Notes under the pieces: generated by a model | What the model saw: the letters and a program-made list of their open reading frames with translations, nothing else | The model's database searches: none | Told to the model about the DNA's origin: nothing | Translations under genes and position numbers: made by a program | Assembly: GCA_030265395.1 (NCBI GenBank) | Contig: JARFYF010000051.1 | Location: 14,062,399 to 14,126,398 of the forward strand | Source: Rhina ancylostomus | Lineage: Eukaryota | Length of the DNA: 64,000 nucleotides | Reading direction: 5' to 3' | In this document: piece after piece, positions 34,982 to 63,101 of the stretch | How the letters are laid out: the number at the start of each line of letters is the position of its first letter | Position numbering within the stretch: position 1 is the first letter of the stretch

Positions 34982-36769
34982 GTGAGCAACCATAGAACAC
35001 TGTCTGGTCAAGGCAGCTCCCAAGCTCAAGTGATCCTTATGGGCATCTGGTGTTCTTGGGTTTGGGTACAAATGTAATGATTTTGTTAGACTCTGTTTAA
35101 AGAAAATGTGATTAACTCAAGTTTATCCATTGGATGATGTTGACATCTGAGTGGCCCAGTGCTGATCCATTAAGGTTTTGTAGATGCACTCCTACCTGAT
35201 TTTGGACTCTAGGTCAGCAATGAATTCAGCTTTTAGTTTGCATGTTGTGTGCAGGGTGGTGATAGTGATTTGTGCAGCAGAGTTCTTTCTTGACCGGTTT
35301 GCAAACCACAGTGAAGTATTTTCTTGGTAGCTTGTTGAAAGTTTGCATATGACTCATGGTTTTTAGGGTGAGATAGAGTACACACTAAACTACATACAAG
35401 TGAGGGGTTACAGCTTTATGGAGTCCAAAAAAAACCCTAAAATTGTATATTTAAGAAGTAGTAAAGTGAACCTGACATTTCAGTCTTGTTACTTTATTAA
35501 ACAGGGAATAGATACTGTCTATTTGGTTTAATTTTGTTTTGCATTCTTTCCACCTCATGCCTGTACCCTGCTCCATACACAGTTGACTAAAAATTTGCTA
35601 GGTCCCTGAGAGGCCTTGAGTATACTGGTGTGAATGATTCTGTACTGTGCAGGGGACAGTCTGAGAGTCCCTTATCTCTGATTTCAGTATTGTTGTATTT
35701 AACTTCTTCATTGGCTTCTTACTCTCCAGTTCTACAGTGCTTTTGGGAACCACTGATATATCAAAAGATGCTTCTGCGAGATCCAGATTGAGAACCTGGC
35801 AGTGACTTATTCCCTCTTCCTTCTCTCACCCTCTTTTGCACCTTCAACCTTACTTTGCTGATCCTAGTTCTTCTGTGTTCTGATCCTAATCTTCAGAGAT
35901 TGAAACCAATTCCCATATCTTGGATCTGGCTAAAGATGTGCTTTCTTCTGTAGGACTCTGCCGCTCCCTAGGAACAAATTGCTATTCCATTGAGCTATTT
36001 CTATAGAGTGACTCGTTCATGTACATTAATAACTTAGACTTGGGAATGCAAGGCATTTTGAAGTTTGCAGATGAAGTTTGGAAATGTAACATACCTCAGT
36101 AGGGCACTGACAAGCTGTGAAATGGGCTGGCACATGGCAAATGAAATTTAATGGTGGGAAGTATAAAGAGAAGCAAGACTGATCTGGAGATATATAACAT
36201 GACTTTGTGGCAGAAAAAGTTTTTGAAACAAAAAGGAATGCTTGGCCTTTATTGTTGAAGAGAAAGCAAGGAAGTCATGTTGAGCCTGTGGTATTTTGTT
36301 CAGTTCTAGGCACCAGATTTCAGGATTGACATGGGACTTGGAGGGTGCAGTACAGATCTAGGAATGAGGGACCAGTTATTTGAAGAGACTGCAGAAGTAG
36401 AAGTTGTTTCTCCTTGCATCTCTGAAAGAGCACATCTCTGACAGTGCAGCACTCCCTCAACACACTATTGGATGTGTTAAGATTAGATATGTGCTCTTGT
36501 CTCAAGGCAGATGAACCAATCAGAAGGAATGTGAGAATGAACAGGTTGAGGAGACAAAGTATAAAAAAAAAAGTTCCTAAGAATTGAAGGAGAATGGACA
36601 CGACCTTGAGTGTTGACCAAGGGAGTGGATGAATGAACAGTCACCAGGACTATGATAGAGGAAGTTGCAAAAGTCTTTTGAAGGCAGGAGAAGAACAATA
36701 AATTAGGAGTGTGCCAAGGTCTTGGAAGTATAGCCAAATAAGTATGTATGGAACAATTTGTGTTTTCAG

Positions 36770-36854
36770 GTACCGACATGAAATTGCACACGATGGACAG
36801 AGGATATATATACTGGGTGGGGGAACGTCGTGGACAACCTATCCACTAGATAAG
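36770..36854 (+). CDS. KLHDC10: KLHDC10 exon 6
   Basis: YRHEIAHDGQRIYILGGGTSWTTYPLDK; ag/gt boundaries. Confidence 0.96.
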
Positions 36855-37650
36855 GTAGGGGATACCAGCCATTACTCAGTCCTGGGGGAAGGGTTGGGCA
36901 TGCAAGTAGATGGGAAAAGAAATTTGTAGGTTAACAAAAAAAATTTTCATTGGCTATTTTGTTGTAATAAATTTTGCAGAGAATGTTGTCAGACAGGTCT
37001 TGATATGTTGCTCTCTATTCAGAGGTGAGTGGTGGAGATCAGAAGGAATGGAGAAATTCTGCTTGGATCATTTCAGGATCAGTATCAAACTAATAATATC
37101 ATCTGGAACTGAATACCCCAGGCCAGTGGCATGCTGCAATGAGGTGATGATTATATCACCCCAGAGGCTAGAGTTGGGCTGGAGGAAATGCCAAATGAAT
37201 ACCAAGTTATCAATAATTAGATGCCAGCTGCTATCTATCTACATGGTACTGTGGATCAAAGGTTTAACTGCATTTTAATAGATCTTAGAGCTATCATAGA
37301 TGAAATCAAATATTGACAGATGAAAATAGAAGAAACTATAATCAATAGTTATCCAATGAACATGGATACCGGATATGCACAGCAACGTAGTCTGCAGCAT
37401 AATTCAAAGGGGCACAAGGCGAGTTTCTAAAACTCCTCAGATTGGACACTTGGTGGGGGGGGGTTGGTTCATAGTGCACTTGGATGCTAGACTGCCAGAA
37501 TTTGGTGAAGGTGCTCCATGGATCAAATATTCCACTTGGTGTTGAAAAATCTGGTGTCAGGATTGACATAACCAATGCTAGATGAAATATGGGGAGCTGC
37601 GACAAGGAATTATGTTTCCAAGACATGGTCTGCATTTATTTAATTTTCAG

Positions 37651-37717
37651 ATACATGCCTATAACTTGGAGACTAATACATGGGAGGAGATACAAACAAA
37701 ACCACAGGAGAGAACAG
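37651..37717 (+). CDS. KLHDC10: KLHDC10 exon 7 (followed by a GC donor)
   Basis: IHAYNLETNTWEEIQTKPQERT-G; ends CAG|gcaagt, phase 1, matching exon 8. Confidence 0.93.
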
Positions 37718-38868
37718 GCAAGTCTGACATTTTTGTTTTCTAATGAACTTAAAGGACAGGAATAAAGCTGCTGCAATTTTAAGGGTTTTTTTAGGTATGG
37801 GGTTTTTCAAATTTTCTGCTCTTTTCCTACTAATTTCCACTAGCACTGATCTCTGACCCCAACAATCCCTCATTGTTTGGTTTTCAGTTCATACATGTGC
37901 TAAACACTGCCCATCTCTAAGCTTTCAGACTGTGTTGGAACCTAGGTGCAGTGAGAGTTAGTTGATTTGAAGGCAACTTTGCTCACATGATCAGAGGACA
38001 TAAGTTTTAAATTGATCTTTTTAAAGGAAATTATTTAAAACCATGTAGTAAAATCAGCTGCTTTAAACTCCCCTGTACAAAATCTTGTCAAAGTACCACA
38101 GAAGGAGGGAGGGATTAAGAGTTATTGAAAAGATGGGTTTTAGGAAGATTTTTATTGAGAGAGTTGGGATCATCCTGAGAGGTATGGGGCTGAGGCAGCA
38201 GCTAGTTTAACTGCCAGTAATTGGGTTTGAAGGAGAGAAACCAATGCAAAAAAAAAGTTCCAAATGGAACAGCAGTAGTCACAAAGTACAAGGAGGTTGC
38301 AGAGATTGTGGAGCAAAAGCAGGAAAGAACTTGAAGATAAAGGCATATTTAAATCAACAGACTATGGGAGGATGGGCGCTATTTTACATGAAGATGATGC
38401 AGTTTTGATCGCCTTGTCGAATTATTGGCAGAGGTGAGCTTACTGTAATAGTTTTGTACTTTTGTTGTGGGGATAATCCTTAAATGCACTTTTTTCATTC
38501 AATATTAGTTTTATGGTGCGATAAGAAATTGTGGTTTCATCCATGAGTTGGGGAAAATAAAAATGGGATTGGTATAAAATAGAGAAACACAGGACTGTGG
38601 ATGCTGGAATCTAGATGTAAAACACTCAGTCCTGAACCAAAATGTTGACTGCCTGCTTTTCTCCATGGATGCTNNNNNNNNNNNNNNNNNNNNNNNNNNN
38701 NNNNNNNNNNNNNNNNNNNNNNNNNNNNNNNNNNNNNNNNNNNNNNNNNNNNNNNNNNNNNNNNNNNNNNNNNNNNNNNNNNNNCTTCTAGTTTATTTCT
38801 TGTCCCCCTCCAATTTTATGCCTCATCATCATAGCCTGATCCTAACCAGGTTTCTTTTTAAACTGTAG

Positions 38869-38916
38869 GTTTCCCAGCAGCTAGAAGATGTCATAGCTGT
38901 GTACAAATAGGACATG
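38869..38916 (+). CDS. KLHDC10: KLHDC10 exon 8
   Basis: GFPAARRCHSCVQIGH-D; tag/gtaagt boundaries. Confidence 0.95.
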
Positions 38917-39309
38917 GTAAGTGGCAGCCTAGTATTTTCTCAATTAAACAATCTTCCTTCCATGCTAATGTACTATCTTCAATACCATGAGCCCTTGTGC
39001 AGTAACCTTTTTATTTGACACCTATTTGAAGAACCAGAGGATGTATTGCCTTTGGGATTTTTTTGTCCACCCTGCTTGTTATACTTTTTAAGGAACTCTA
39101 CCAAATTTATTAAATGTCTTTTTTTAAATTTCTAAAATCATGATCATGCTGCTTAATCATGCTATGACTTTCCATGGGGCCAATTACCATTTTCTTAATA
39201 ATTACCAGCATTTTTGCAATGCCAGGTGTTTAGCTAACTGGCCTATAGTTCCTTGCCTTGTATCTCCCTCCCTACATTTAAAACCTTTGTTTTCAAGAGA
39301 ACTTTTTTG

Positions 39310-39640
39310 TGTGGCTCAGTCAAAAGTGATATTCACCTGAGTCAAAAGATCATAGTATTACAGTGGACATTTGAATCCAAGGAAGTCCAACATCAGAGGT
39401 GCTGAGTTTCAGCTGGGATGTTAAAGCGAAACCCTGTCTGAACTTGAGTGGTGTAAAGGACCCCATGGCATTGTTTTGAAGAAGAGCAGGAATGTTCTTG
39501 TGATAATTGAGGCCAATATTTATTCTTGAGTCAGCATCACTTAAATATCATGATCAGTTTGTGGGAACTTGCTGTGCACACTGGCAGCCACACTGCATAT
39601 ATTTGTGACTGTAAAGCATTGTGTTGACTTAGGTATAAAA
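39310..39640 (+). mobile_element. Deu-domain SINE remnant
   Basis: 'gtaaaggaccccatggcattgttttgaagaagagcagg..gccaatatttattc..tttgtgggaacttgctgtgc'. Similar remnants lie at ~3700-3970 (+) and ~15780-16010 (-). Confidence 0.7.
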
Positions 39641-39702
39641 TTTCATTTTTTGGTTGTATGTTATTGGAAATATTAGGTTATTGAGTTGATCTTCTTTTAC
39701 AG

Positions 39703-39842
39703 ATGTGTATGTCTGTGGTGGATATAATGGTGAGGTGATACTTGGGGACCTGTGGAAGCTCAGTTTACAAAATTTCCAATGGGTTAAACTACCTGCCGAA
39801 ATGCCTGAGCCAGCTTACTTTCACACTGCAGCAGTCACCCCG
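39703..39842 (+). CDS. KLHDC10: KLHDC10 exon 9
   Basis: DVYVCGGYNGEVILGDLWKLSLQNFQWVKLPAEMPEPAYFHTAAVTP; ag/gtgagt boundaries. Confidence 0.97.
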
Positions 39843-40783
39843 GTGAGTGAAATAAGTTTTCATGCCAACTATACTATGGTTGGCATTACCATAGGCTTAA
39901 GTTGGGTTTAAACATCCCCACCAACACCCATCCCTTCCACTCTCTTGTGGGAATCACTGATGTAAAATAGTGAATGGGAACTTAAATGACCCTTGTTCAA
40001 CAGGAAAAATTTAGTTGAGATTCATTAACTTATTAAATGTAAGTTTAAGACTGAATGCTTTGCTTTGTAATGACTTCTGAGCACCTACAGCTGCAACTGC
40101 AACAGCATGCTTTCCTCACAGCTAATTTTGTGGCCTATAAATGTGCAGGTACCCTTGCAGTGATCCCATCCAAATGTATTTTACTACAATAAACACAAGG
40201 TACTTGGCAGGTGTGGATGCCTCTGTGGAGAGAAACTTAATATTTTAGATTTCTACCATTTAATTTTCTTCATTGCATTTTGCAGTGCTGGGCTAAGTGA
40301 AACATTGGGGCCTAGTTTCCCTTGATGAATTTAAATCCATTTTGTAGGTGGTCATGGTGATTAATCCTGTCTGCATAAATTCTAATGTCATCTAAGTCAC
40401 TTTCAAAAGTAGTGAGCAGCTCCAGCCCCAGTGCTGTTCCCTGCAAGATATTTCTAGCCTGACTTTATAGCAATCTGCAGTCTCTTGTTCTGCCCCATTC
40501 TGGGGGGAAAAACATCAGACTGTTGCAAGTTACTCCTGAATTTCTCTGATCCTGATCACTGTTCCAAATAGTTTGCTTCAATCCTACAGGCCACGAACTC
40601 CACTCTCTCATTGTCCAACAAGTTTGGAGCTAGTGGGCATAGAGTCAGGAGTGCATTCTTTTGACCCTGACAATTAAATGGGAACTGAATGAAAATCAGC
40701 AATGAACATGCTCACTGACATGCGAGAAGTGATGCTGTAGGAATTTTTTCTTCAGATTTTACAATCTTATCATTGTCTTGCAG

Positions 40784-40993
40784 GCTGGCTGTATGTATGT
40801 ACATGGTGGAGTGGTCAACATTCATGAGAATAAGCGGACTGATTCACTCTATAAAATCTGGCTAGTGGTGCCCAGCCTGTTTGAACTTTGTTGGGAGAGG
40901 TTACTGAAGAGCCTTCCACAGTTAACACAGTTCTCCACTACACAGCTGCTCAATCTTGGACTTACACAAGGACTTGTGGAGAGACTTAAGTGA
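40784..40993 (+). CDS. KLHDC10: KLHDC10 exon 10 (last coding exon; C-terminal BC-box/CUL2-box region)
   Basis: AGCMYVHGGVVNIHENKRTDSLYKIWLVVPSLFELCWERLLKSLPQLTQFSTTQLLNLGLTQGLVERLK*. The visible spliced CDS totals 1206 nt and stays in frame. Confidence 0.97.
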   Translation, partial: AGCMYVHGGVVNIHENKRTDSLYKIWLVVPSLFELCWERLLKSLPQLTQFSTTQLLNLGLTQGLVERLK

Positions 40994-46666: not shown

Positions 46667-46740
46667 TCAGCAGCTGCTTTGAGATGGAGCGAAGTAATAC
46701 ATGGCCATGATGATGAGGTAGACTACCACCAATGCTGTGC
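46667..46740 (-). CDS. Cation/H+ exchanger (CAX/VNX1-like), last coding exon
   Basis: G-TALVVVYLIIMAMYYFAPSQSSC*; acceptor ccttgcag; final TM helix of the CaCA fold. Confidence 0.93.
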
Positions 46741-47628
46741 CTGCAAGGACAAGTCAGTGTCAGGGTTAAAGGATGACAAATTTCCACTCCAGAAGATTAA
46801 AGCAAAGACCAACCTACATTGAGGAATGGAAGAATTACTGTTCTCAGCAGTTAGCTGGCAAAGCAAAGATACAGATAATTTGGGCCAAAAGGGCCCCACA
46901 CTAGAAGCAAATTCCACAACTCACTCATTCAAGATCTCTGCTTGGTCCCAGTGTCACTGGAACTCTTACCTTAAAATCAATTCCCACTTCACCTGTCATA
47001 CTTCACTTGGATTTCACACAAATCAAATCACACAATCAATACTGCTTCTGTTCAACTTAAATAAGAACCCCGTTTGAATTTCTCATGCTCTTTTTGGTTT
47101 AATACAAAAGAATGGGACAAACAAACAATAAAAATTTTCTGGCAAATATTTATCTTTGAATGATCAGCTTTTTGTTAAAGGTGTAGAAGCTGTCTGTGCA
47201 CACTATTGCTGTGTTTATTACTCTACAAGTGTGTACAGTCCAAAAATACTTCACTGGTTGCAAACCACTGAGATGCCTCCAAACATATAAAAGTAAACTT
47301 TCATAGACAAGTAACCAGGGCAGACTTGTACAGTTGGCCACCTGCAGAACATAGCATGTCAATTACTGGCCTAACCTGTGCCCTGATGCTAATACCAGGT
47401 ATACAGTGGGGAACTGTTGTCAGGGTAACGTAGAGGAAGCTCTACACTATGCAAAACATGGAAAGCCTGACATAGAACAAAACATTTGATTGCACCTCAA
47501 TACATACTTCCCTTCTCCCAGATGTGGGTCTCTGCAAAACTTATTGTGTGATATCTAATAGCCAATGCAATCTCCAAGACAACATTGTACTATTTTGTTC
47601 AACTGAACAGTGATGAAAGTTAACCCAC

Positions 47629-47737
47629 CTTGGAAATAGTCACACTTGCCATCCATGAATATGTAGTTCATTAAAATGACACTGAATATTGATGCCCAAA
47701 GATGGAGATCACTGAAGAGCAAATTAAAACCTACAGG
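47629..47737 (-). CDS. CAX exon
   Basis: PVGFNLLFSDLHLWASIFSVILMNYIFMDGKCDYFQ-G, matching the CAX DGxSxYxxG-type motif; tttag/gtgggt boundaries. Confidence 0.93.
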
Positions 47738-48322
47738 CTAAATACAAAGCAAATAATATCTGGTCAGTACAGAGGTTGATAACATTGCCTTGGCATAATA
47801 TCAATGGATTTAATTTTTAAATTAGCCCTAATGGTCCAATTAGGGTCTCAATTAAATGCTCATTTCTATAAAACCAGGTTGGCAAAGGGTCTCAACTTCT
47901 GAGTAAACGCTATACATCAACATCTTTGCTGGTTATACTTTCTATGCTCCATCCTGCACAGCTAGTTTACCCAAATCCCACCTTTTTCCTGTACTACATC
48001 CCACAGACATCATCCCTTTTGTGATTGACCTTCAACAGGTCTCATCCTTGATATTTAATTCAGATTTCTTGACCTGGTGTATGAATTCTTCCATGGCTCT
48101 ACACCATTTCTTTCCCTTAGCCATTCCCCACCACCATTCCTCCTGTCCTATAGACTGGTATGCCTTATCGCTGCCTCTCCAATTCCCCTCCATAGTACTA
48201 AAGCTGTACTAAGACACCACACCCAGCTACCTCCTGACCCCTGCTGAATAATTGGAGTGTCACAGAAGGATTTCAGGAATTTCATCAGATCAGTACACCC
48301 CCCCATGGTGTTAAATACTTAC

Positions 48323-48401
48323 ATAAATGACTGAGAAGAGCACCAGCACTGGGATTTGGAGCATACACACTTGTACAGCGATGGAACTTCCCACTTCCAA
48401 G
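48323..48401 (-). CDS. CAX exon (end of alpha-2 repeat)
   Basis: S-LEVGSSIAVQVCMLQIPVLVLFSVIY; cag/gtaagt boundaries. Confidence 0.93.
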
Positions 48402-48630
48402 CTGAGGAAATAAATCAAGATGGATGAATGAAAATTCTACAAAACGAGCACCAATGTGCCTTCCTGAAGAAAATCACATCCAGTATCCTAGTTTTGCAGC
48501 TGGGTTGTACTTTATGGCAAGCACACACTAAATACACCCAAAAATTTTCCTGCAGTTTCCCCAACATCAGCTGGTGAAGGCAACCCATTAGATATTAATC
48601 ATATCAAGACCATCCACTTCAGCTACCTAC

Positions 48631-48725
48631 CTGAGGCTGATGTTGTTCTGCAGTGCAAATTGGATCCCATTAACTATTTCAGGAAGTTCAGGAACCATCG
48701 CCAAGACCGTTACACCAAGGAAGTA
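48631..48725 (-). CDS. CAX exon (alpha-2 repeat)
   Basis: YFLGVTVLAMVPELPEIVNGIQFALQNNISL-S; cag/gtaggt boundaries. Confidence 0.94.
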
Positions 48726-49212
48726 CTGTTTGTAATAGAGAAATGCACAAGAGAAGGAGTTACCAATAAAGGCAAGTTTCAGATTTCTTCCCCTTTTCAG
48801 CCAAAACTTGGGATGTGTCAAAATGTGGAACTTTGAATTAGTGGGTAGAACCACTTCTTCCATTGTACAACTTTCCATAGAATTAAATCCACTGAGCTGT
48901 CATACCCCTGCACCACCCTCATTCTTCAAACGAGTCAATCTAGATCTTTTGCTGAATCTGCTACTTTCATCCATAATCCCAATGTCTGATCCATTATTTT
49001 TCAAAATTTATGCCGTGGNNNNNNNNNNNNNNNNNNNNNNNNNNNNNNNNNNNNNCAAAAAAAAATGGAGAATTGTAACAATTGGTCTTTTGCCACCCTC
49101 CACAGCCGTTCCGAGATTCTCAGAGAAGACGCTACCCTCAGTCAGATGCTACCCTCAAAATATCAAGTCCACCACACACAATTGAACAAGGGGCAGGAAT
49201 GCATTGACTCAC

Positions 49213-49361
49213 CGGTGAGATTGCAGAGCTGGACAACAAGGGGTCAATGTGCTCAGACACCAACTCTGCACAGGCAGACATACAAACAGTGGCTACAACG
49301 AGCAGCACCACAGCTCTCCATCGTGACCAGTGAATAACCACACTGTGGCTGTGCCCTGGAA
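49213..49361 (-). CDS. CAX exon
   Basis: VPGHSHSVVIHWSRWRAVVLLVVATVCMSACAELVSEHIDPLLSSSAISP; cag/gtgagt boundaries. Confidence 0.93.
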
Positions 49362-51064
49362 CTGCAGAGACAGCACAAATTAGCTCAACAAGCTTTTATA
49401 TTTAAAGAATGGGAGTAACTAGAGCACTAACTCATCTTACAGGCTAAATGGCAGACATCTCCCATATCATTCTGCAATTCCCTGAAGATAATACAAAGGC
49501 CAACAATTCAATAGGTATCTAATGCCAAGTTGGATTCAAGTTCTGATCATCAACCTTTCATGGAAGAGGGGAATTTCAGGCTAAATATATGTGAAAAGAT
49601 AGTGAGGAAAGGCCCATGTATATTTAACAAGTCTGACCACAGACACTAAGCTGGTGACACTCAACAAGCATCTCCTCAGCAACAGGTGATGCCATTCAGA
49701 GCTACAGTACCATTAGCATATTGTTCCTTCTAAAACACCCAGAAATTGCTTGGGAAGATGCTGCTGAAGATCAGCAACTGCAGTCAGGAAGTAGATGGCT
49801 TGTTCTCAACTTCAATGCCACTTTCAGTGAGTCAATGCTGAAGAAACATCTGTACTGGGACATTTAAAATCACCATCAACACATGAATAATGCCACCCTT
49901 AGAAGGTTTCTGGATACTGCAGTTGAGGTGACATGGAGTCAGATCATACAGCATGGAAACAGGCCATTTGGCCCATCATGTCACACTGACAGTGGGTGCC
50001 TGTCAGTATGATTGCCATCTTCCTGCAGTTGGCCCATACCCTTCTCTNNNNNNNNNNNNNNNNNNNNNNNNNNNNNNNNNNNNNNNNNNNNNNNNNNNNN
50101 NNNNNNNNNNNNNNNNNNNNNNNNNNNNNNNNNNNNNNNNNNNNNNNATCGTCCTGCAGTTGGCCCATACCCTTCTCTGCCTTTGCGATTTAAGTGCTCA
50201 CCTAGAAAAGTGTCAGCATGCCTGCTTACCCCACTCCCGCAGGCAGTGTATTCCAGGTACTCACTGAAAAAAGATCCCCCTCAGTTCCCCTCCAAATCTC
50301 TTACCCCAAGTCCATGTCCTCTAGTTTTATCTACCTCTGATATGGGGAAGTTTCCTGCAGTCCACCCTATCTATACCCATTACAAATTTTACACACCTCA
50401 ACTATGTCCCCTCGTGACTTCTACTGCTCCACAGAAAATAGACTTAGTATTAAGAGGACAGACTGGAGACACTATCAGGTTTCTAGCCAAGCAAGAATCC
50501 ATTGCCCAACACAACCCATGAAGACATGATAATCTGGAGTGTTTTGCTGGAAGTTTACATAACCATTTTCCTCAGCCAAGAGTTAAGAGGCCATCGCTTC
50601 CTTTGAGCCTGCTCCACCATGTTGAAGTACATTCCATAAACTGATTGGGTGTAAAAGTGGCATTCATGGAGGGGTATTTTTTTTTTTTGGAAATTTCTCT
50701 ACACTTGAAGCCTGATTGTCTTGCATTAACAGGAAGTATCATTTCAAAATCCAAATGAACAGATTTTATGTGGGGAGGGGTTTGGGGGACAAAACATTTT
50801 AGGAATTGTGATCATCTTTCCTCCAGCTACCGAGCAAGTGATTTATCAATAGCATTAACGGGATGTGAGGCAAGCATGCAATTCCCCATCTCACTGAACG
50901 TTCAACTGAGTGAAAGAACTTGGGTTGATACAAGGGTACACCTTTAACCAGAAGAGGGCAGCGCGCAAGAAGGGATGATTCCTGCATGCTGCCAACACAT
51001 TACATGTTACTGGTCAGCTAGGAAAAGAATGCAACTTCCCAAAGCTGGATGAAGAGGTACTTAC

Positions 51065-51177
51065 CATGACAGTCACTGATATGAATATCATAGATGTGGG
51101 TATGAGTCTTCAGAGCAAAAATGAGACCAATCACATATGATGCTGGGAGAAGTATACACACGGTGTGGATCAGGGGC
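51065..51177 (-). CDS. CAX exon
   Basis: PLIHTVCILLPASYVIGLIFALKTHTHIYDIHISDCH, containing the CAX LxFxLKTH motif; tag/gtaagt boundaries. Confidence 0.94.
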
Positions 51178-53024
51178 CTAAAGGACAGAAAGATCATTAC
51201 AGGAAACAGGTCTCATGTGATGCCCCAGTGGCAAGTAACATCCCCATATTACCAGAGCTTTACTGCAACTTATCATGCTGCCTAAGGATCAAGAACCTTC
51301 ACGAAAGCAACAAAAGAAAACTGACAGCAAGTCAAAGAGCAGAGGGGGGTGGAGAGAGGGACAATGGTGCAAAGGGAGATGAGGGTTAGAGAACAAGGAA
51401 GAGAGTGGAGATGAGGAGGTTTGTCAGAACCATAAGGATGGAGGGGCAAAGGGATAAAAAGAAAATGAGTAAATTAGATCCTATGGATTTAAAAACAAGG
51501 AATACTCTAAGAAATAGAGGCACTGCTTAACTAGGAGCCAGTGTAGGACAAGCAGAGGAATTAGGATATTGGCAGCAAGAATTTGGAATATCAAGTTCAC
51601 AGGGGGCAGAGCGAGAGGCTGGCCAGGACTCCCTCAGAACAGTCAGCTGAAAGTAAAGGCAAAGATGAGGCTTTCAGCAGCAGATGAGATGAGAAGGCCG
51701 AAGTCAGAAGACTTTAAAATAAGTTACCAACATCTTTGGTGTTATATCTGATCCTATGTCAAATAGTTGTTAACGAGGATAGAGTTGGGGTTAGTGATGG
51801 GAAATGTGAAATGTAATTCAGTCTTCCCAATATTTAACTAGCAAATATCCCTGTTCTTCCAGTCCACCAGACAGTTTGAGAAATTTAGAGACAGTGGAGA
51901 AGGAGTCAACAAAAGCAGTAGCGAGAAAAAAAAGTGCCATTTGTGTACATGGAGCCCGATTTCTATTTTTGGGTAGTTACAGGAAAATGACAGCCAGCTG
52001 AAACATTTACAACCAGCCAGTTTAGTGGCTCATCTCAATCATTATGATACAGTCCGAAAGTTCTATAAACTTTCAGTCCTGGCATCTCCTCTCACCCCCA
52101 CCACTCCTNNNNNNNNNNNNNNNNNNNNNNNNNNNNNNNNNNNNNNNNNNNNNNNNNNNNNNNNNNNNNNNNNNNNNNNNNNNNNNNNNNNNNNNNNNNN
52201 NNNNNNNNNNNNNNNNNNNNNNNNNNNNNNNNNNNNNNNNNNNNNNNNNNNNNNNNNNNNNNNNNNNNNNNNNNNNNNNNNNNNNNNNNNNNNNNNNNNN
52301 NNNNNNNNNNNNNNNNNNNNNNNNNNNNNNNNNNNNNNNNNNNNNNNNNNNNNNNNNNNNNNNNNNNNNNNNNNNNNNNNNNNNNNNNNNNNNNNNNNNN
52401 NNNNNNNNNNNNNNNNNNNNNNNNNNNNNNNNNNNNNNNNNNNNNNNNNNNNNNNNNNNNNNNNNNNNNNNNNNNNNNNNNNNNNNNNNNNNNNNNNNNN
52501 NNNNNNNNNNNNNNNNNNNNNNNNNNNNNNNNNNNNNNNNNNNNNNNNNNNNNNNNNNNNNNNNNNNNNNNNNNNNNNNNNNNNNNNNNNNNNNNNNNNN
52601 NNNNNNNNNNNNNNNNNNNNNNNNNNNNNNNNNNNNNNNNNNNNNNNNNNNNNNNNNNNNNNNNNAGTGCTGGTAATCTGAAATAAGAACAGAAAATGCT
52701 GTAGACCTCTCATGTTGACTGGGCCTAAACCTAGATAACCTGGGCAAGCCGTTGTCCAACCCCAAAAGGGAAAACTGGACCCGGTCCTCACTTGTTAGGC
52801 AAGGGGTAATGGATTAAAAACCATCAATGACAACTTGCATCTAACAGTGCACATCTCAAAGCATATTCATGACTTTCAACCCAGAGTGTTTGAGTTATTC
52901 TGCCATATTTCCATCTACTCCCCCACCCCCTAAAGCCTTTTGCACAGCCCTGCATTTCCTTTACGTAACTAGACAAGACAGCAAGCTCCAGAAGATAGCA
53001 GTGATTAAAAGAGTAAATCCATAC

Positions 53025-53143
53025 CACACTGAAGTGACAATCATTACATTCAAAGGGGCCAGATTCATTCTGTGTTGAATTGGTGCAGCCTTGACATATT
53101 AGGTTTCCATAAGCTTTAGAGAAGAGAGTTGGTGCAAACACAC
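53025..53143 (-). CDS. CAX exon (Cys-rich loop)
   Basis: G-VFAPTLFSKAYGNLICQGCTNSTQNESGPFECNDCHFSV; tag/gtatgg boundaries. Confidence 0.9.
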
Positions 53144-54048
53144 CTACAGAAATTAAAAAAAAAACAAATCAGCCATATGTCACCTCAGGTCACCCAGTGC
53201 CACAATACAAAATGACAGTCCCAGAAGTTTCAAAAGGAAGAGAATGTGGAATCCTTAACAAATTCAGAACTTGGCCTGACATCACAAGACTTGTTCTTAA
53301 CAACTACACGTGACTGATTTTGGAAGAAACATTTCCCTGAAGATGGATACAGATTCTGGCAACTGGAACGTTGGTCCTAATCACCAGTAATACACACATA
53401 CACACACCAGATTAGCATGGCTATAATGCCCATACTAAGTCACAATCCTGTGCTCAGTCATGTCTATTTGAACTTGCTCAGTAACTTTTAATTGGTGTGC
53501 AAATCATGGCTGTTTTCCAACTCCCTTCGGCAGGGAGCAAGTCTAACAAGTCCCACTTTTCTAGAGCAGGAGTCAGGGACTGGTGGGATTATAACAGAAG
53601 ATACTTACGTTTAATGAAATCAGGAAGAAGTTTTTAAACTTGGAAAAAGGGAAAAAGAACCTAGTACCTCCTCTCCTCAATGACCATGGGCCAGAAGGAA
53701 TTTAAGATAACCTGTTCAATTTTTGATTGTAAATGAACAGAAGGATATGGAGCAGAGCCAGGTAGTTGGACTTGATAAGCCATAATGTGATTGGATGGCT
53801 GTAGAATTTGAGAGGTTGCACCTCATCCAGTTGAATACATTCTCTAGGATACTAAAGCCAAGCAACAGCCCCTTTTAATTGAAGGCAACCATGTTATTCC
53901 ACTCAGTGACAACAGCTGGGCCCTCACAAATTACTGCATTACACCAGAAACAGTGCAAAATAGATTTAACTTTTGAGTTTGTGCTGTCTCCCAGTGGTAC
54001 CTTTAGTAGATGTTTTGTTTCAGAAGATGTCAGAAGAATTAGACCTAC

Positions 54049-54148
54049 CTCCCACGGATATGAAGAGCAATGCTGAGCTGATGCCAGCTGAGCGGCTGTT
54101 GAACCTCTGCTCCTGGTGCTTGCAACCTCCGATCACCATGGATATACC
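54049..54148 (-). CDS. CAX exon
   Basis: GISMVIGGCKHQEQRFNSRSAGISSALLFISVG-G, containing the CAX EQxFN motif; cag/gtaggt boundaries. Confidence 0.94.
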
Positions 54149-54697
54149 CTGGAGGACAAGCTGCTCATCAGTTTCTGCCCCAAAGCAAACTGAATCACAG
54201 GGATTTACAAAGCTGGCATTTTCAGAATCACTTTAAAATTTAGAATGTGGAAGAATTACTCCACAACTCAATACTCCACCAGACCATATTCACCAACCTG
54301 GACTTTGCAATACAACTCAATAGCATTTGAATCGAGGCAGAAGAGTGAAGGTCAAACAAAGTACTAAGGCCACCTGCAGACCCAACTTCAGCATGTCCTG
54401 CAAATTACTGGGTAGATTCTAAACTTGCAATCTTCTGAGTGAGCTGAGCAAGTCTCACTCTAGACTGGAATACATATTCTAGGAATGACAGTGTAATGTA
54501 GTACAGAGGATGTCTCCTTTCAAACATTAAACCNNNNNNNNNNAAGGTAGAGGGTCCCATGGGTCAACTAAAGACAGCCAAAAGTTCATCCCAGTATCCA
54601 AACAAGTTTAAAAACTCCAGTCACAGCACAATCTGGTGGATATCACACAGCTTCAAAAGGTGCAGTGTGATGCACTGAACGGTCTTGCAATAAAGTA

Positions 54698-55005
54698 CAG
54701 TGAAACTGATAACCTGCTATTCAACTATCCAGGAATCCTGATGGTTTGGCACACACTCACTACGTCACATTTGCTGCACTCTTTCCAGTCATTGGTCCCT
54801 ATACTCTTCAATTCACAGAGGCACCAGAACCAGGCTCCCCTTTAACTCAGCTCGTTCACTGGAAGACTTATCATATTGCATGATGTTTAAAAGTAACAAA
54901 TTTAACAAGTGTGAGATATTAATAGAAATAACAACCAAAAGTCCAAAAAAAATCTGATAATCTAGCACACTCGAGACTTGGAACTGGATTAGCAGAATTT
55001 TACTG
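54698..55005. mobile_element. Probable Tigger-like MITE
   Basis: TA|CAGTGAAACT ... AATTTTACTG|TA termini; ~310 bp. Confidence 0.5.
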
Positions 55006-55300
55006 TAACAGGACAGAACCTTCAAACTGAAGGTGGCAACAGAAGATCCTACATCAGAAAGCTTGTCCCTATTGCTTGATAAGGGGACCTGGAGACAGGG
55101 GAGATTTGGCTACAAAGCAATATTCTTGCAGTCAATGCTGTCTCATGGAAGGACCAATATTACAAGCATGAAAGAGATCAAGTGGTCAGATGGTTTGCAA
55201 ATGACTGGGTCAGTTCTTGTCCTGGCTAAGAGAAATTAAACATTGCAGAGTTCAAGTTTCCTAATGAGGCAAGCAAAAGCAGGCAGCTGGAATAACTTAC

Positions 55301-55484
55301 TGGAATAAAGAGGACACATCCCAACAAGGTTCCAGTCAGAGCACTTTTCACCACCTCCTCATAGCACTTGTTCCCTTTATGGCTGCCTTTGATCAGAGCA
55401 GTTATGTAGAAGGTCAGCTCAGTGATTGAACCAAATGTGGCATTCACTACTGCACCTACTGCAAAGTTACTCTGCGCTGAAATG
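55301..55484 (-). CDS. CAX exon (alpha-1 repeat)
   Basis: S-ISAQSNFAVGAVVNATFGSITELTFYITALIKGSHKGNKCYEEVVKSALTGTLLGCVLFIP; NATFGxxxE is the CAX alpha-1 signature. Confidence 0.95.
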
Positions 55485-58234
55485 CTGAAAACAAGAGTAG
55501 ATTTAAATCATTGTATGTTAGAAAATTTTGAATACAGTTTCCCAAACTCATTCAACCATTTTCAATAGGCAAGGTGGTACAGTTACCAAATGCAATTAAA
55601 AAAATTAAGTTGTTGCCACACATGGAAAAAAAAGTAAAATCTGGTACATGAGTACTCCTGGGTACAAAGGAATCATGGGTTTAACGTTCTACAAGTATCA
55701 GCACGCCACAGTCGTTACATAATGACATTGCTCAAGGCTGAAGCTGCAATACTTCCTTTGGAACAACACTTCATAATACTGTACGCCATCAATTCAGGTG
55801 TTGCCAAGTGAGGTGTTTATATAAAAATAAGCATTAACTGGCTTCAGGAGGTATGACATTTCAGCATGATGGTCACACTGAAGTATGTGCTCAAAGAACA
55901 TGTAATGCATTTCACTTTAAAATTTAAGTTGATTTTTGAAATCTGGAAATGCAAGTCCAATCAGTCCAACTCATTTGTCAAGGCTCAAGAAACTTCAGAT
56001 GCTGGGATCTGGAGCAACAAACAACCTTCTGGAGGAACTCAAGAGGGTTGAGCAGCATTTGTGTGTCTGTCTCCATCTACCTGGCTCTGTCTCCCAGCTC
56101 CATATCTCCCCCCTCCCCCCCAACCCCACTGAGATGCCACTTCACCCAATGAGTTCTTCCAGCAGGATGTTTGCAACTCAATTGTGCTCAGTTCTAACTG
56201 AGCAAGGATGCAAAGGGCAATGGAGATGTGTGCAAATGGGAAGTTACAAACACCAGGAAAAGGTTGACTGGACCCAGGGGAGGGAGGGAGGGAGGGAGGG
56301 AGGAAAATTCATCCACGGGGTGACCTAATAATCTTCTAATTAGGGAAAGGTTTGACAATGTTGCAAAAGACCTTGCCACTTAAGGGAATTCAAAACTAGA
56401 GCCACATTTAAGGTGGTCACTAATCAATCCAATAAAACTCTGGAGGAATGTTAAGTAGTGAGAATTGAGGCCTTACTACTGCAAGGTGTGCTTGAGGTGA
56501 GTAGTTTAGGTGCATGACAGGGGAAACCCATGAGGCAAAGGAAATAAAATAAAAATCAATAAAGCCAAGTATCAGCAAGGCCAAACAGTACAACTGTGGT
56601 ATCATCTCTTCCTCTGTGGCCTAGAGTAGGTTCTAGAAGATCAGTGTTTACCTTTTCCACTCTTCCAACAGTTATTAGAATACATACTACAAACTCTCTC
56701 AAACCAGTTTGACTTTAATTTTAACTTCCTCCAAACACTTCTCATGGCTTATTGCCACCACTGTTTCACAACAATTCAACAGGTAGTGCAACATAGGTAG
56801 AGCAAACTGCACATGTCCAAGGAACAAAGGATCACGTGGGTGCACGAAGGCAGTATTGCACAAGCAGAAGGAAGCCCACCTGCCATCCTGCGTACACGAG
56901 AACATACACACTCAGTGCCCTTGTGTAAGTTGGACTTTAAAGACTGACATAGAAGATCACACAACTTCACACTTGTCAAAACAGCCCCAAGACTGCCTGT
57001 GGTCTATCAACAAATGCTGATCAACCAAAAAAAACAGCAAGTCTTGCATACAGATGAGAATGCAAATCAGAATGAGCCCAATGTACCACCTGACAAAAAA
57101 ACCCCCAAACACAGCCACAGGATTTTAAACCAATAGAAAAGGAGGAGGTGTTGAGACATTTCCCACTCCTGCCCTCCGAGAAGCAATTTCAAGCAGGAAA
57201 CCTTTGCAAAAAAAAAACGACTTACATCACTGGGAATATTTCTAAATTGATCTACTTATTCTTTGAACCAGAAAGGTGGTTTCACCTTAATTGTATAGCA
57301 AATAATTCATAAAAGAGGAAGTTAAGGTTGAGAGCATTGTCTGACAGCACAAGGGGAGATAAAGCAACGTGAAATAAAATCTATGATAAAGTACACCAGA
57401 AGTGAGAACACATTGCTTGCGGTACAGTATTGTTCCTGACTTCAAAGTGATGTACTGCAGAGTTTCCACTATGTTCAAAATGTGATCAAACCATTCTTCA
57501 AGTTTGCTTCCAATGCACCCTCTTGTTGCTGACAGCCAAGGAATGTTCCTTTCTGTGCCTCAATTGGGGGTGGAGGTGTAAAGTGAAGACTTTTAGAAAA
57601 AGATATTTTGTAATGAGAACAAGTGTTCAGAATTATTATTACTGACATATTATGTCCTTGATGGTGGAGAGGGTAGTACCCATGATGGAGCTGGCCGAGT
57701 CTACAACCCCGTGCAGCTTCTTTCAATCCTGCACACTGAAGCCTCCATACCATTGTAGATTTTACCAACTATTCTCGTTTCTTCCAGAGATCTCCCAGAG
57801 CACCAGATACAGTAACAGGAAAATATTTCAAGAGCCGATCATCTTACTGCACCCTTTCAAACATTAGGCTTTATTAGCTGGGCAGAAAAGAGTAGGTAGA
57901 GCTCTGTGTTTTCATTGAACACAGGCTGAAGATGGACTGGGTCATTTCCAGCTTCTGTCTCATCCCCACATGCACCCAAGGGAATGTTACTTTCCAACTT
58001 GCCTTTTAATGGGAAAAGTTTGCTAGGCAAGTCACCCTGTCATTTTTGGGGAAGAATACACTAAGAGAAAATGCCAAGGATGAAGTAGGATGGGGGAGGG
58101 GTAGTGGTGGAAGTGGGGGAACCTGGGTACAGAGGGGGTAATGGAAGAGTTTAGGAAACACCAGCATGAACCAGTTCGCTCACATAGCCCGTTACTTTGC
58201 TACAATGACAAAAGTACAACAAGGTTCTGCTTAC

Positions 58235-58376
58235 CTCGCGATTGCCATCCCAATGTAGTAGGACAGAGGAATTATTGCCAAGATGGATAGGGCAAATTTT
58301 ACAGGAGAACTGGCATAGTGATTCTCTGTGTCAGCATACCCCAAGACCAGAGCAACTACTACTAGAGGAAGCAGAT
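58235..58376 (-). CDS. CAX exon (first TM hairpin of the exchanger domain)
   Basis: N-LLPLVVVALVLGYADTENHYASSPVKFALSILAIIPLSYYIGMAIA-S; preceded by a U12 branch site. Confidence 0.94.
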
Positions 58377-59798
58377 CTGAAGAGCCAGTTAAGGAAATAA
58401 CTTGCACGAAAAAGCAACACAGTCACCAGTAGACAATAGTCACTAACCACAGTACATGCCCCAGAAGAGACTCAGGAGTTATGTGAAAATTGGGTGCACC
58501 TTTTCCTTGCTTTGTATAGTCCAAACTGCAAGGTTTAGAGTANNNNNATAGTCCAAGCTGCAAGGCTCTACCACGTAGCATGCTTGGACTGGCCTAACCC
58601 AATTACTGCGTCATTAACTATAGAACGAAGGATAAAAACATCATCAAGTTCAAGAATCCACATTGTGATGGAGCAGAGGGAGACTTAAATTTGCTTCTGA
58701 TTGAAGAACAATTCTAAAATTCTGCTAGAGTAGTGCTCCCAATAACTAGCCACGCGACCAGCTGCATTTCTGGGCAACAGAAAAGCAAGAGGCACTCTCA
58801 ATACTCACCATGTGAGCTTTGTAAAATTACAGTAACAAAGTACTTCTTTTGATTATGTTTACTAGTGTGGTGATTGAATGTTCATCTTGGTAAAGATACA
58901 AATGAAGAACACTTACCTCTCGTGAACATGATACTTTTCACTAAAAAAAAATTAGTAGTGTGCATAGTTGAATTAAGTTTGACAATTACCACCCCAGGGT
59001 TGCGTTCAATGAATTTTATTGAACAAAGTAACAGTGCCAACCAGTTTACAGGCCAACATCAAGCAATGCAATGGGATAATTTGGGGACATTGAAAGTGCA
59101 CAGTTAACAAACTTTCTGTGCCTTTTAAATAAAATTTTAAGCCAACTCCTTTAACAGCACTATTTGGGATCGTTGGATAAAAAGGTATAATTTTGGAGTC
59201 TTCCGACTTACACATATTGGCCTTTATTTCTCTTATAGCCAGGAGAGCTGTGTTGCTCAAATGGAAAGAAGTTACTGCCCCCACTCATGTTCAATGGCTA
59301 CGGGATATTGTGTCATATCTAAATTTAGAGAAGATCTGTTGTTCGATTTCTGGATCTAATCTGGACTTTCAAATATTGTGGGGACCTTTCTTGAACTACT
59401 TTCAAAACCATTGATTTGGTTCTTAAAGTACAGATACTGGCTAATACTATTGTGTCTTCAGGGCTTTAAAATTTTTTTTTAAAAAAAGAGCTTCAGTCTT
59501 GGTAGTGGGTTTAGTTTTTTTATATAATAAAATTATTCCAATTTATTAATATCAATTAGTTATTTCAGTTTATCAATGAGGTATTGTGATTTCAAGTGTG
59601 ACTCAATACAATGTATTTTGCAACATTTTGTCTTTTCTTTTGTTCCATGTACTTTGTACTCTATCTGGAATTAATAAAAAATATTGTAAAAGAGAAAGTG
59701 CACAGTTAGCATACAAAGCAAAATAATTCAATTCTACTTTAATTAGCAATTGTACCTTTCTCCAGCCTTACTCCTTCACTTGGAGTATCAAAGGATAC
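58377..59798 (-). other. U12-type (minor spliceosome) GT-AG intron in the CAX gene
   Basis: Donor GTATCCTTT (59798-59790); branch site TTTCCTTAAC (58397-58388) ending 11 nt before the exon. This junction keeps the reading frame. Confidence 0.92.
59107..59693 (+). mobile_element. 5'-truncated L1-type LINE with a 15-bp target-site duplication
   Basis: ORF LAFISLIARRAVLLKWK..PTHVQWLRDIVSYLNLEKI..WGPFLNYF (fish L1 ORF2 C-terminus), AATAAA/A-rich end, GAAAGTGCACAGTTA at 59092-59106 and 59694-59708. Confidence 0.88.
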
Positions 59799-59901
59799 TC
59801 ACAGCAAACACATTAATGCCAACTACTGTGTACTTGTAATAGTAGAAATTCATAGCACGGTAACAACAAAGGACCACTTCTCCATCCAGTGGACTGTCAG
59901 T
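59799..59901 (-). CDS. CAX exon followed by a U12-type donor
   Basis: TDSPLDGEVVLCCYRAMNFYYYKYTVVGINVFAV-N, resembling the VNX1/type II CAX 'YYKYTxxGxN' motif. Confidence 0.92.
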
Positions 59902-61334
59902 CTGGTGGCAGGGAGTGAAACAAAGTAAAAATCAGTTCACTGAGATAGTTCAACCCAAGGATCTATGTTTTATGAATCACATCGGGCTGAACCTCTTGTG
60001 TTGTAAAATCATGAGGGATATAGACAGAGGATTTTCTCCCATTAGCAGAGGTATCAAGAACTAGGGGACATGGAAGGATTATGATTGGCAAAAGAACCAA
60101 AAGAAGTGACACTAAAAGAAATCCCCCCACCCCATCAAAACATAGCAAGTGGTAAGGGTGTATAATGCACTGCCAGAACTTGCAGTGGTGGCAGAGTCAA
60201 TTGCAGCATTGAACAGGGAGCTAGAAAAGGAAAGAATTCACAGAACTACAGGGAGAAGGCAAGGAAGTTCTACCACCATGATTGCTCTTGCATAGAGTCA
60301 GTAGGGAACACAGGAGCCTCCTTCATTGCACTGATTGCTCTGACTTGATTTTGGATCAGATTGTAGCTAATGAGATCCTGAACTGGTCAGAACAAAAGCC
60401 AGGGTTTTATGATGATACCAGAGACCAGAACCAGTTGTTCTGACCATCCGCAGGCATTACAAGTGTTCAGGCCTTCATTTTAAAATCAATTTCCAAACTG
60501 TCAAAGAATGTCTCATTCCTTCTCCAATCTCCCCAGTGCTACAAACCTATACTTTAATTCTGGCATCACACCAGTAGTAGCAGCCCGGACTCCAAGATCT
60601 GAAATCCCTAGCTGCATAATCTCCTCGAAATCTTCCACTGCTAACTTATCTGAATATCTCATATGGCTGGCTGTCAAAATATTAAAAAACAATTTCATTA
60701 TGAACACTGAAGCATTTTTCTTCATTAAAGATACTATACAAATGAAAGGAATTAGTTCTGTCACAGGAATATATGATTTTCAATGAAGCAAATTGATGGT
60801 CCATTAGATAGATCCAAGCAAATTACTTTTTGCTAAATTGGTGCTGAGCCATTTGAACTTATGAGCCATAAGTCATCTCCAATAACTTAACTAATTTGTC
60901 TCACTGGAGCTTCATTGAAGTTAACTAAATTAATTTTAACTAAATTAAAGTCAAGCTTCCAAAATAAAGCACAAATCTAACAAGCTGCTGTTTGTTATCC
61001 TGCTCCTTATGAGGCTGAATAGCCAACCAGAAACACTGGCCAATATGAGCACTATAGTGGAGCTCATCATGGAATAACTGTTATAAATTCAGTAGCAGAT
61101 GGGTAATGATATTCTGATAATATTGGTGGCACATTTACAAATGTGCAGACTTGCAGACATTAAAAGGAATTGTTTAGTTTGCCTTAGTGTAAAGCAACAG
61201 GGCTGCACACGAGAAAACACCACATCCACTGCCAAATCAGTCACCCAAGTACAGAGGCAGCTTTGGGTTAACTCAGCACTGAATATACCAGCACAAGGAC
61301 ACTGGAAAACACCCAACATTCTCCATTAAGATAT

Positions 61335-62770
61335 AACAACAGAAAATGCTGGAAATACTGAGCAGATAAGGTAGCATACGTAGAGAGAAACAGGAACCAA
61401 TAACTAAGATTCTGTAACTGAGACGCAGTGCCTAACAGAACACAAGATGCTGTTGGATTCAGTGGAACAGTGCAAGAGGCCAAAGACTGAGGTTGTAGTG
61501 GGAGAGTGATGGAGAATCAAAACTGACAGACATCGAGAAGCTCAAGGTCAACCTTTCTAACTTGAAGTAATCACCCAATCTTCTTTTGCTGTAGAGAAGA
61601 TTAAATCATGAGCACCAAATGCAGTACACTAAATTAGAAATTTCAGAAGTTCACTGCTTTACTTGGATAAAGGAAAGGATAAAAGGAAAGGACAAGGGAA
61701 ATTCTATCCTTGCTGTGGGCGAGAGGAGGAGAGGGCAGAGGTGCAGTAGCCATGGTTAAAGGAAAATNNNNNNNNNNNNNNNNNNNNNNNNNNNNNNNNN
61801 NNNNNNNNNNNNNNNNNNNNNNNNNNNNNNNNNNNNNNNNNNNNNNNNNNNNNNNNNNNNNNNNNNNAGGAAAATGGCAGACATCACAGGAGCACTGATG
61901 AGCCAAATGTCATCAGAACAGATATAATGGAACCAGAGAATGGAAGGGAATCCATTCTGGAAGCAGGATGAGAGTCACAGTCAAAACAACTGTGGAGTCT
62001 ATGGGCTTCAGGTGGATGTTGGTCAGTAACCTATCCCATGGTGGTGATAGAGACATTACCAAAACAAAGAATTATAGCGATTAAAGAGCAGGGTGGCAGC
62101 TGCCAGCGAAAGGTGATGAAATGCACACATTCTTCATGAAAACAGTAAGCAATATCCAAAGAGTCAATGTACCAGGGAAAAAAATTGAAGGGCACCCCAA
62201 GAAAAACTGAAGCAAGGACCATGCCACATAGCCACAGACAGGCATAGTTATGACCCATGTTGGTTCCCCTAGTGAGAGCTCTGATACACCCACCTCAGCG
62301 TTCAGACTTTAAATGCCATGATTAGATAAGTTTCTCATCTCCCCTTTCAGCATTCCAAAAGGGACTGGCCCCTCCACATCTTGGTTCACTCTTTCATCTC
62401 CATCAACACCAATCCCTTCTCTCAGAATCCGCAAGAGACTGAGCACCTGCCCTATTATCAGTTGCCTTCCCACCATACGCTGCATCTCAGTTCCAGTGCT
62501 CCCCCACCACAGCCTTATTCAATTGCATTCACATTTCCTTCAACCAGATCTGCAATTATAAAACCTTCCTCACCACAATTTACACACACAGCCTCCATCC
62601 ACCACATTCCCCTTTTTATTTCTCCACAGCTTAAAACATACTCATTTCCTACTTCTGATGAAAGGCCATGGACTTGAAACTTGAACTGGTTCTTTCTCCA
62701 CAGATGCTGCCTGACCTGCTGGGTATTTCCAACATGTAATTTCAGATTTTTAACACATGCAGATTTTTTG
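61335..62770. mobile_element. Penelope-like element remnant with inverted termini
   Basis: 'cagaaaatgctggaaatactgagcag' at the left, 'agatgctgcctgacctgctgggtatttccaacat' at the right, with decayed PLE-like internal sequence. Confidence 0.65.
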
Positions 62771-62915
62771 TACAAAACTTTCCCACATTAGGATGAATTT
62801 ATCATGCTCCTTAAAGCCCCTTCAGTTACCTCAAGTTCTAGTTGTTGATTTGTAATGTTCCTATTATGTTGTCATTAGGAGATACTGTGCACTGCCAGCA
62901 AAACAAGATCCTTAC

Positions 62916-63101
62916 CCTCTTGGATGGTCTGATCTGAAGCTGCTCAGGAGGGATTAGCAGGATGTCAGTGATGGCTCTGACATTTAGCTTGGCTATTGGA
63001 ATGGTGACAACCAAAATCCAAGCAATGAAGGAAGCCAGGCCATGGGCAAGTGCGAGAAGTGGATACCCCAGGAGAAGCCACACATAGGTGCTAGGAGAGT
63101 G
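62916..63101 (-). CDS. CAX exon (N-terminal membrane region typical of type II CAX); gene continues past the window
   Basis: HSPSTYVWLLLGYPLLALAHGLASFIAWILVVTIPIAKLNVRAITDILLIPPEQLQIRPSKR; ttccag/gtaagg boundaries, phase 0-0. Confidence 0.88.

Follow-up and report, generated by a model that had tools for sequence, protein, structure and literature searches.

The closest described relatives of the gene analysed here are the vertebrate type II cation/H+ exchangers (CAX), whose layout combines PF03733 with PF01699 (PMC4810305, Fig. 1a). The Xenopus CAX restored Ca2+/H+ exchange in vesicles of vcx1/vnx1 yeast, with the E420A form inactive, and it localised with LAMP1 (PMC4810305). Xenopus CAX and zebrafish Cax1 are reported to occur in acidic organelles and in the neural crest (PMC4810305; PMC4982074). 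The other exchangers of the superfamily, NCX, NCKX and NCLX, carry the signatures G(S/G)SAPE, GTS(V/I)PD or GNGAPD (PMC8366772). Within the 64,000-nt stretch of Rhina ancylostomus DNA that forms our window, an earlier note had described a CAX gene of 12 exons and 1453 nt, convergent with KLHDC10. We reproduced this total exactly, with AG/GT ends throughout, on the minus strand. The features are as follows.

30151 to 40993, plus strand: tested coding exons of the convergent neighbour KLHDC10, whose first exon is located further to the left
62916 to 63101, minus strand: CAX exon 8 (186 nt), second YccF/DUF307-like hairpin, weak PF03733 match (E 0.003)
59799 to 59901, minus strand: CAX exon 9 (103 nt), ending at the U12-type donor; its junction gives FAVNLLP, as in relatives
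58377 to 59798, minus strand: putative U12-type GT-AG intron (1422 nt) between CAX exons 9 and 10
58235 to 58376, minus strand: CAX exon 10 (142 nt), TM0-TM1
55301 to 55484, minus strand: CAX exon 11 (184 nt), alpha-1 repeat NATFGSITE with E421
54049 to 54148, minus strand: CAX exon 12 (100 nt), EQRFN
53025 to 53143, minus strand: CAX exon 13 (119 nt), two CxxC motifs and two N-glycosylation sequons
52109 to 52665, no strand: assembly gap of 557 N, likely hiding the 35-nt CAX exon 14
51065 to 51177, minus strand: CAX exon 15 (113 nt), TM5, LKTH
49213 to 49361, minus strand: CAX exon 16 (149 nt), TM6
48631 to 48725, minus strand: CAX exon 17 (95 nt), alpha-2 VPELPEIVNG with E645 and E648; PF01699 match (E 3e-4)
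48323 to 48401, minus strand: CAX exon 18 (79 nt), TM8, LEVGSSIAVQ
47629 to 47737, minus strand: CAX exon 19 (109 nt), TM9, DGKCDYFQ
46667 to 46740, minus strand: CAX exon 20 (74 nt), TM10 and stop

All five motifs quoted in that description were found where it had placed them, on the minus strand: NATFGSITE (55444-55418), EQRFN (54112-54098), LKTH (51113-51102), VPELPE (48695-48678) and DGKCDYFQG (47653-47627). The junctions are phase-consistent except for one, 53025 to 51177. We infer a luminal side for the loop encoded by exon 13, which is likely. Seven further 5′ exons lie outside the window, and those matching the PF03733 (DUF307/YccF) part were found in the ray genome. Disabling lesions in these exons, a possibility the earlier note had raised, were not seen; the 19 exons observed contain no stop or frameshift, and the 750-residue model has no internal stop and one terminal stop. 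A CpG-rich region is present at the start of the gene. A genome scan with PF01699 listed 25 places, none at the CAX locus; the scan is thus too insensitive for short exons.

Over 693 aligned residues the protein model shares 98.1% identity with P0012 of the sawfish Pristis; its identity to Mobula P0013 is 92.4%. A quick maximum-likelihood tree of 42 rows, built without bootstrap or a type I outgroup, nested the ray model in vertebrate CAX. Its sister was Pristis (SH-aLRT 96), and it fell within the rays (100) and the vertebrates (100); teleost cax1 and cax2 made up a clade of their own. Pristis P0012 matched PF01699 in two stretches and PF03733 (68.7 bits, cut-off 27), both above cut-off. The YccF extension and the tree position support the proposed assignment to a Vnx1-like, type II CAX of a chondrichthyan. 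We also asked about best matches to another CaCA family: the top family matches were to CAX and not to NCX, NCKX or NCLX. All four PDB sequence matches were CAX, and in NCBIfam the cax model (E 2e-48) far outscored the YrbG-type model (E 1e-6), these two being the only CaCA models listed, although the scores fall below the curated cut-offs, which apply to prokaryotic type I models. The AlphaFold model of P0012 (pLDDT 84.6) matched the fold of Vcx1 (E 4e-17, target TM 0.84), NCX_Mj (1e-5) and NCLX (2e-4), and also that of YfkE. Judged on this 98%-identical proxy, two alpha repeats with central carboxylates and a predicted inverted-repeat fold place the protein in the CaCA superfamily. The NCX/NCKX/NCLX signatures were not found in the ray protein, whereas the NCX/NCKX loci of the ray genome itself have GSSAPE or GGSAPE; with the CAX model as tblastn query, four of these loci gave no match below E 0.6. 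The type I pattern GNxxE(H) is likewise replaced, by GSITE and PELPEI, and YccF is present. The ray protein belongs to the CAX family, closer to it than to NCX, NCKX, NCLX or YrbG. As an ortholog it adds little, since many sharks and rays have an annotated copy and the frog and zebrafish genes have been tested. The earlier description as intact stands for the exons seen, which are free of lesions; to call the gene poorly characterised was an overstatement, as 17 cartilaginous-fish species already have it annotated.

The convergent KLHDC10 was recognised by matches to PDB 9d8p (E 7e-33 and 8e-45), and its stop at 40993 and that of CAX at 46667 are 5.7 kb apart. The gene order is ZC3HC1-KLHDC10-cax-TMEM209. 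CAX is a known animal gene that was lost in placental mammals. The gene order points to the KLHDC10-TMEM209 interval as the site of that loss, naming the human interval in which the lost gene could be sought; this lead is relevant to the question of how Ca2+ enters placental lysosomes in the absence of CAX, for which TMEM165 is the proposed substitute (PMC12141690). Two exon queries each hit one place in the genome, and a second paralog was not found among the best candidates scored. A search for more intron read-through proteins gave nothing further: the 19 full-length proteins it retrieved had all been spliced or named before.

U12-type introns have the donor RTATCCTT and a TTCCTTRAY branch motif near the acceptor. 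The intron between exons 9 and 10 has the donor GTATCCTTT at 59798-59790, the sole GTATCCTTT in 164 kb on both strands, and a branch motif TTCCTTAAC at 58396-58388 that begins 20 nt before the intron end. By these two matches intron 59798-58377 is classed as putatively U12-type (compare the examples in PMC7367187, Table 1), and one CAX intron is thus predicted to need the minor spliceosome. A U2-like donor, GTGAGT, overlaps the U12-type donor 4 nt upstream, and its use would shift the frame. A 24-nt candidate micro-exon with good U2 sites (58940-58917) was rejected as constitutive, as relatives read FAVNLLP without it; if joined to the U2 donor, it runs straight into a stop. The run X1 contig agrees at the U12 sites, which is not independent support because X1 is possibly the assembly's own source. 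The intron accounts for mis-predicted CAX junctions in some database models, and, in non-placental vertebrates, could connect neural crest migration with minor splicing.

The alpha-repeat glutamates of the ray protein are E421 and E648; numbering and alignment to Vcx1 and YfkE suggest that they are equivalent to Xenopus E420 and E648. GSITE is present in 117 of 119 matches; 90 of the 119 have PELPE or PEIPE, and 28 are unmatched. The noted deviation from the type I GNxxE is therefore real but pan-vertebrate rather than specific to rays. Ray and vertebrate CAX have an acid in alpha-2 (E645) where fungal and type I CAX have Asn, and E645 offers a single-residue test between animal CAX, which moves Ca2+, and Vnx1, described as monovalent. 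An acidic dileucine motif, ETTALL (residues 229-234), is conserved and mostly absent from teleost cax2. The alpha-2 acid, the dileucine and the gene order, like the U12 intron with its overlapping U2-like donor, are details new relative to the earlier note.

From these observations we consider it highly probable that the gene is the single-copy ray ortholog of vertebrate type II CAX, unbroken in its 19 seen exons and likely to encode an endolysosomal Ca2+/H+ antiporter. The one phase break could instead mark a recently broken gene, in which deletion of exon 14 shifted the frame ahead of the alpha-2 repeat. Without exon 14 the frame stops after residue 562, and the assembly did not yield the exon: when 164 kb were scanned with BLOSUM, the top match within the sequenced portion of the intron scored only 14, and an exact degenerate pattern had no match in the genome. 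However, cartilaginous-fish relatives have about 12 extra residues at the 53025/51177 junction, corresponding to a 35-nt exon, and the 557-N gap falls inside the same intron; a relative's contig (run X2) spans it with 559 letters. For these reasons, and with no match elsewhere, exon 14 likely sits in the gap. Six downstream exons are fully conserved (92-100% identity to Pristis for alignments confined to the exon), and the other donor/acceptor pairs are intact (18/18). A broken gene is thus very improbable.

An unbroken gene might still encode an exchanger that, like Vnx1, mainly swaps Na+ or K+ for H+ and sets the pH and volume of organelles, Ca2+ being a minor substrate. The earlier suggestion that selectivity may differ draws on Vnx1, which PMC6539216 describes as exchanging K+ or Na+ for H+; ray CAX and fungal type II proteins have alpha-1 GSxxE in common, and the CAX signature GNxxE(H) (PMC8366772) is absent from the ray protein. 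We found no monovalent-ion assay of a vertebrate CAX, and "Na+" has no occurrence in PMC4810305. The suggestion is nevertheless weakened because Xenopus CAX, which transports Ca2+, has been published as a Ca2+/H+ exchanger in acidic organelles (PMC4810305), so that yeast complementation is largely done for the family; Ca2+ is a substrate of every CAX characterised, those of type 2 among them (PMC3355786). Furthermore, alpha-2 reads PNxxE in 5/5 named fungal rows while vertebrate rows have an acid at that site, and the ray site is therefore not the Vnx1 site. We regard a mainly Na+ or K+ role as unlikely.

For the favoured Ca2+/H+ antiporter, we infer action on acidic organelles from the Xenopus data (PMC4810305). 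The protein would be sorted there, possibly via ETTALL. Protons that the V-ATPase pumps into the lumen would bind to E421 and E648 and, through alternating access, trade places with cytosolic Ca2+. Acidic stores would thereby be filled and Ca2+ signals damped, as is the case in Xenopus. More doubtful, and offered tentatively, is a joint reading of jawed-vertebrate CAX as gated by the minor spliceosome, with its own ion site, dileucine lysosomal sorting and placental loss from KLHDC10-TMEM209. The U12 intron, possibly conserved from rays to birds, and the overlapping, frameshifting U2 donor might limit CAX output; E645, a third alpha-repeat carboxylate, might alter selectivity or stoichiometry; the dileucine signal, presumably lost in teleost cax2, might route CAX to lysosomes; and remnants in the placental interval could date the loss.

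Compared with known systems, the ray gene shares exon blocks and motifs with Pristis pectinata P0012, Mobula P0013 and other chondrichthyan "cation/H+ exchanger protein 1" entries, differing by species-level substitutions only; no functional study of these was found in the literature searched. Xenopus CAX and zebrafish Cax1 have, like the ray protein, DUF307/YccF with an 11-helix core and glutamates at 420/421 and 648 (PMC4810305; PMC4982074). The P0012 AlphaFold model has four N-terminal helices, in contrast to the two TM segments drawn for Xenopus CAX (PMC4810305), and teleosts have two CAX paralogs where the ray has one. Fungal Vnx1-type CAX, of which Vnx1 is described as a monovalent cation (K+/Na+)/H+ exchanger (PMC6539216), have PF03733, PF01699, alpha-1 GSxxE, SAQS and EIGS in common with the ray protein, with alpha-2 PNxxE against PELPE in the ray. 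Type I CAX (Vcx1 4K1C, B. subtilis YfkE, Arabidopsis CAX1) share the fold (target TM 0.80-0.90) and both catalytic glutamates at about 24% identity, but have GNxxE and GNxxEH where the ray protein has GSITE and PELPEI; YfkE N69, N252 and H256, which matter in YfkE (PMC10227063), align to ray S418, E645 and I649. Unlike type I CAX, the ray protein has extra N-terminal YccF hairpins and a Cys-rich loop.

All of the motifs quoted in the earlier note for the type II cation/H+ exchanger gene (CAX) were found on the minus strand, from 63101 to 46667, and the 12 exons, whose boundaries follow from splice signals and tblastn with relatives, do total 1453 nt. The convergent neighbor is KLHDC10, as had been proposed. 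A tblastn search of the adjoining 100 kb recovered seven further CAX exons outside the window. The main features are as follows (plain coordinates are window positions; C51 coordinates are those of the same contig, which extends past the window, the window itself being C51:14062399-14126398).

C51:14060468-14165964: gene order ZC3HC1, KLHDC10, cax, TMEM209
C51:14148297, minus strand: CAX start ATG (tblastn)
C51:14126694-14126545, minus strand: of the seven outside exons, the one nearest the window edge (tblastn)
59798-58377, minus strand: U12-type intron (donor and branch motif match), its donor overlapped by a U2-like one 4 nt upstream

The 20-exon model, which includes a 35-nt placeholder for a missing exon, encodes 750 amino acids and has a single, terminal stop; the 5′ exons, previously unseen and a possible site of disabling lesions, contain none. 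Exon 2 (135 nt) is missing in several relatives' database isoforms. The one phase break that had been noted lies between 53025 and 51177, all other junctions being in phase, and relatives carry approximately 12 residues at this point. The corresponding exon was not found in the sequenced part of this intron and had no match elsewhere in the genome. Since the intron contains a 557-N gap, which a contig from another organism (run X2) crosses with 559 letters, we infer that a 35-nt exon is hidden within the gap. Tandem acceptors 6 nt apart were also seen at 49361 and 49355 (minus strand); the intervening two residues are missing from three stingray/manta proteins, so splicing may use either site.

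The model is 98.1% identical to Pristis pectinata (sawfish) cation/H+ exchanger protein 1 (P0012). Identity is 91-94% with other rays, 85-91% with sharks, 81-82% with elephant shark and, for the six bony vertebrates in the comparison, 62-68%. A search with the alpha-1 exon gave 758 proteins among 803 candidates; the best named matches, annotated as 'cation/H+ exchanger protein 1' or an equivalent, come from 17 species of cartilaginous fish. As a proxy for the ray protein, P0012 contains PF01699 and PF03733, matches NCBIfam cax with an E of 2e-48, under that model's prokaryotic cut-off, and its PDB sequence matches are all CAX (4/4). For an AlphaFold model of P0012, built from an 80-sequence alignment, Vcx1, AtCAX1 and YfkE were the best structural matches; NCX_Mj and NCLX scored far below them. 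Residues 106-257 of this model form four N-terminal helices, predicted with confidence and arranged as two YccF-like hairpins, whereas the published CAX topology draws two TM segments. In a quick ML tree (42 rows hand-picked from about 390 proteins, midpoint-rooted, with SH-aLRT as the sole support measure and no outgroup of type I; deep representatives with names, n = 20), the ray model pairs with Pristis within rays. Both teleost paralogs, cax1 and cax2, fall in a single teleost clade, and the ray gene is therefore co-orthologous to both. It is a genuine ortholog, apparently intact, of an already characterized family.

To the left, 1.8 kb outside the window, is a zf-C3HC domain, and PF09786 (TMEM209) exons start 8.4 kb past the CAX start. 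CpG islands were seen at about 2900-3320 and 7100-7600, the latter interrupted by an N gap; they are probably the first exons of ZC3HC1 (minus strand) and KLHDC10 (plus strand), respectively. In human, KLHDC10 and TMEM209 are probably directly adjacent. A human 7q32 gene table, which may omit genes, gives ZC3HC1, KLHDC10 and TMEM209 consecutively, with cax missing between the last two (PMC3441634), and three papers describe CAX as absent from placentals (PMC4810305, PMC4982074, PMC12141690).

Because the junction in relatives reads FAVNLLP, the donor of exon 9 must be GTATCCTTT; use of the overlapping U2-like donor would bring a stop four codons into the next exon. The branch motif TTCCTTAAC begins 20 nt ahead of the intron end. 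In 164 kb, both strands, GTATCCTTT occurs once and TTCCTTAAC four times, and both match U12-type examples in Table 1 of PMC7367187. A scan of the exon 9/10 junction in 270 proteins gave AVNLL in 95, AVSIL in four and no regex match in 101. AVSIL is the in-frame read-through of a donor of this kind. Its four carriers, of which P0043 and P0111 are named bird models and P0035 and P0042 are unnamed, suggest, though only indirectly, that the donor is conserved in birds. Our literature search found no report of this intron, which online intron databases and supplements may list; one supplement file of PMC11347168 gave 0 matches. The intron also holds a high-copy repeat (59115-59680; contig depth in the thousands) and a 24-nt candidate cassette flanked by strong U2 sites (58940-58917, minus strand), which is not present in relatives' proteins.

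Acidic dileucine endolysosomal signals follow the consensus [DE]xxxL[LI]. This is fitted by ETTALL, model residues 229-234, in the loop that follows the first of the YccF hairpins (exon C51:14126694-14126545, minus strand). Among 80 such loops, regex-cut from 119 proteins, 74 carry the motif against 1.5 expected from shuffles that ignore kinship; in a cax2-rich teleost set the count is 11 of 91 against 7.4 expected on the same basis, nine of the 11 having the cax1-type loop and five being named cax1. A sea star and a choanoflagellate have the motif as well. In these sequences it is conserved from a choanoflagellate to birds and mostly missing in teleost cax2.

The alpha-repeat motifs of the earlier note (GSITE, PELPE) are present; their deviation is not specific to the ray gene but widespread among relatives. 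GSITE forms alpha-1 in 117 of 119 matches from the alpha-1-exon search and 111/119 of a second set, and GSxxE is common across type II CAX. Alpha-2 reads PELPE or PEIPE in 90/119 (28 unmatched, one PQLPE) and 105/119 (14 unmatched), respectively. The acid that vertebrates have at alpha-2 is missing in Elysia, Lingula and one further animal row, and is thus not pan-animal. The loop encoded by 53143-53025 (minus strand) has two N-glycosylation sequons and two CxxC motifs; two CxxC were scored in 88/92 and 108/114 vertebrate proteins, and these pairs are likely luminal disulfides.

PMC6539216 describes Vnx1 as a K+/Na+ exchanger, and according to PMC3355786 every CAX characterized, including those of type 2, moves Ca2+. 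At the alpha-2 position where vertebrate CAX has Glu, five of five named fungal rows have Asn, and YfkE likewise differs, with N252. H+ and Ca2+ compete for binding at E72 and E255 of YfkE, according to PMC10227063, and these residues align to E421 and E648 of the ray protein. In the account of PMC4810305, yeast regains Ca2+/H+ exchange with Xenopus CAX, for which E420 and the N terminus of the protein are needed; Xenopus CAX is located on acidic organelles positive for LAMP1, and neural crest migration depends on it. By analogy, we infer that ray CAX would behave as Xenopus CAX does, and is likely to be a Ca2+/H+ exchanger of acidic organelles.
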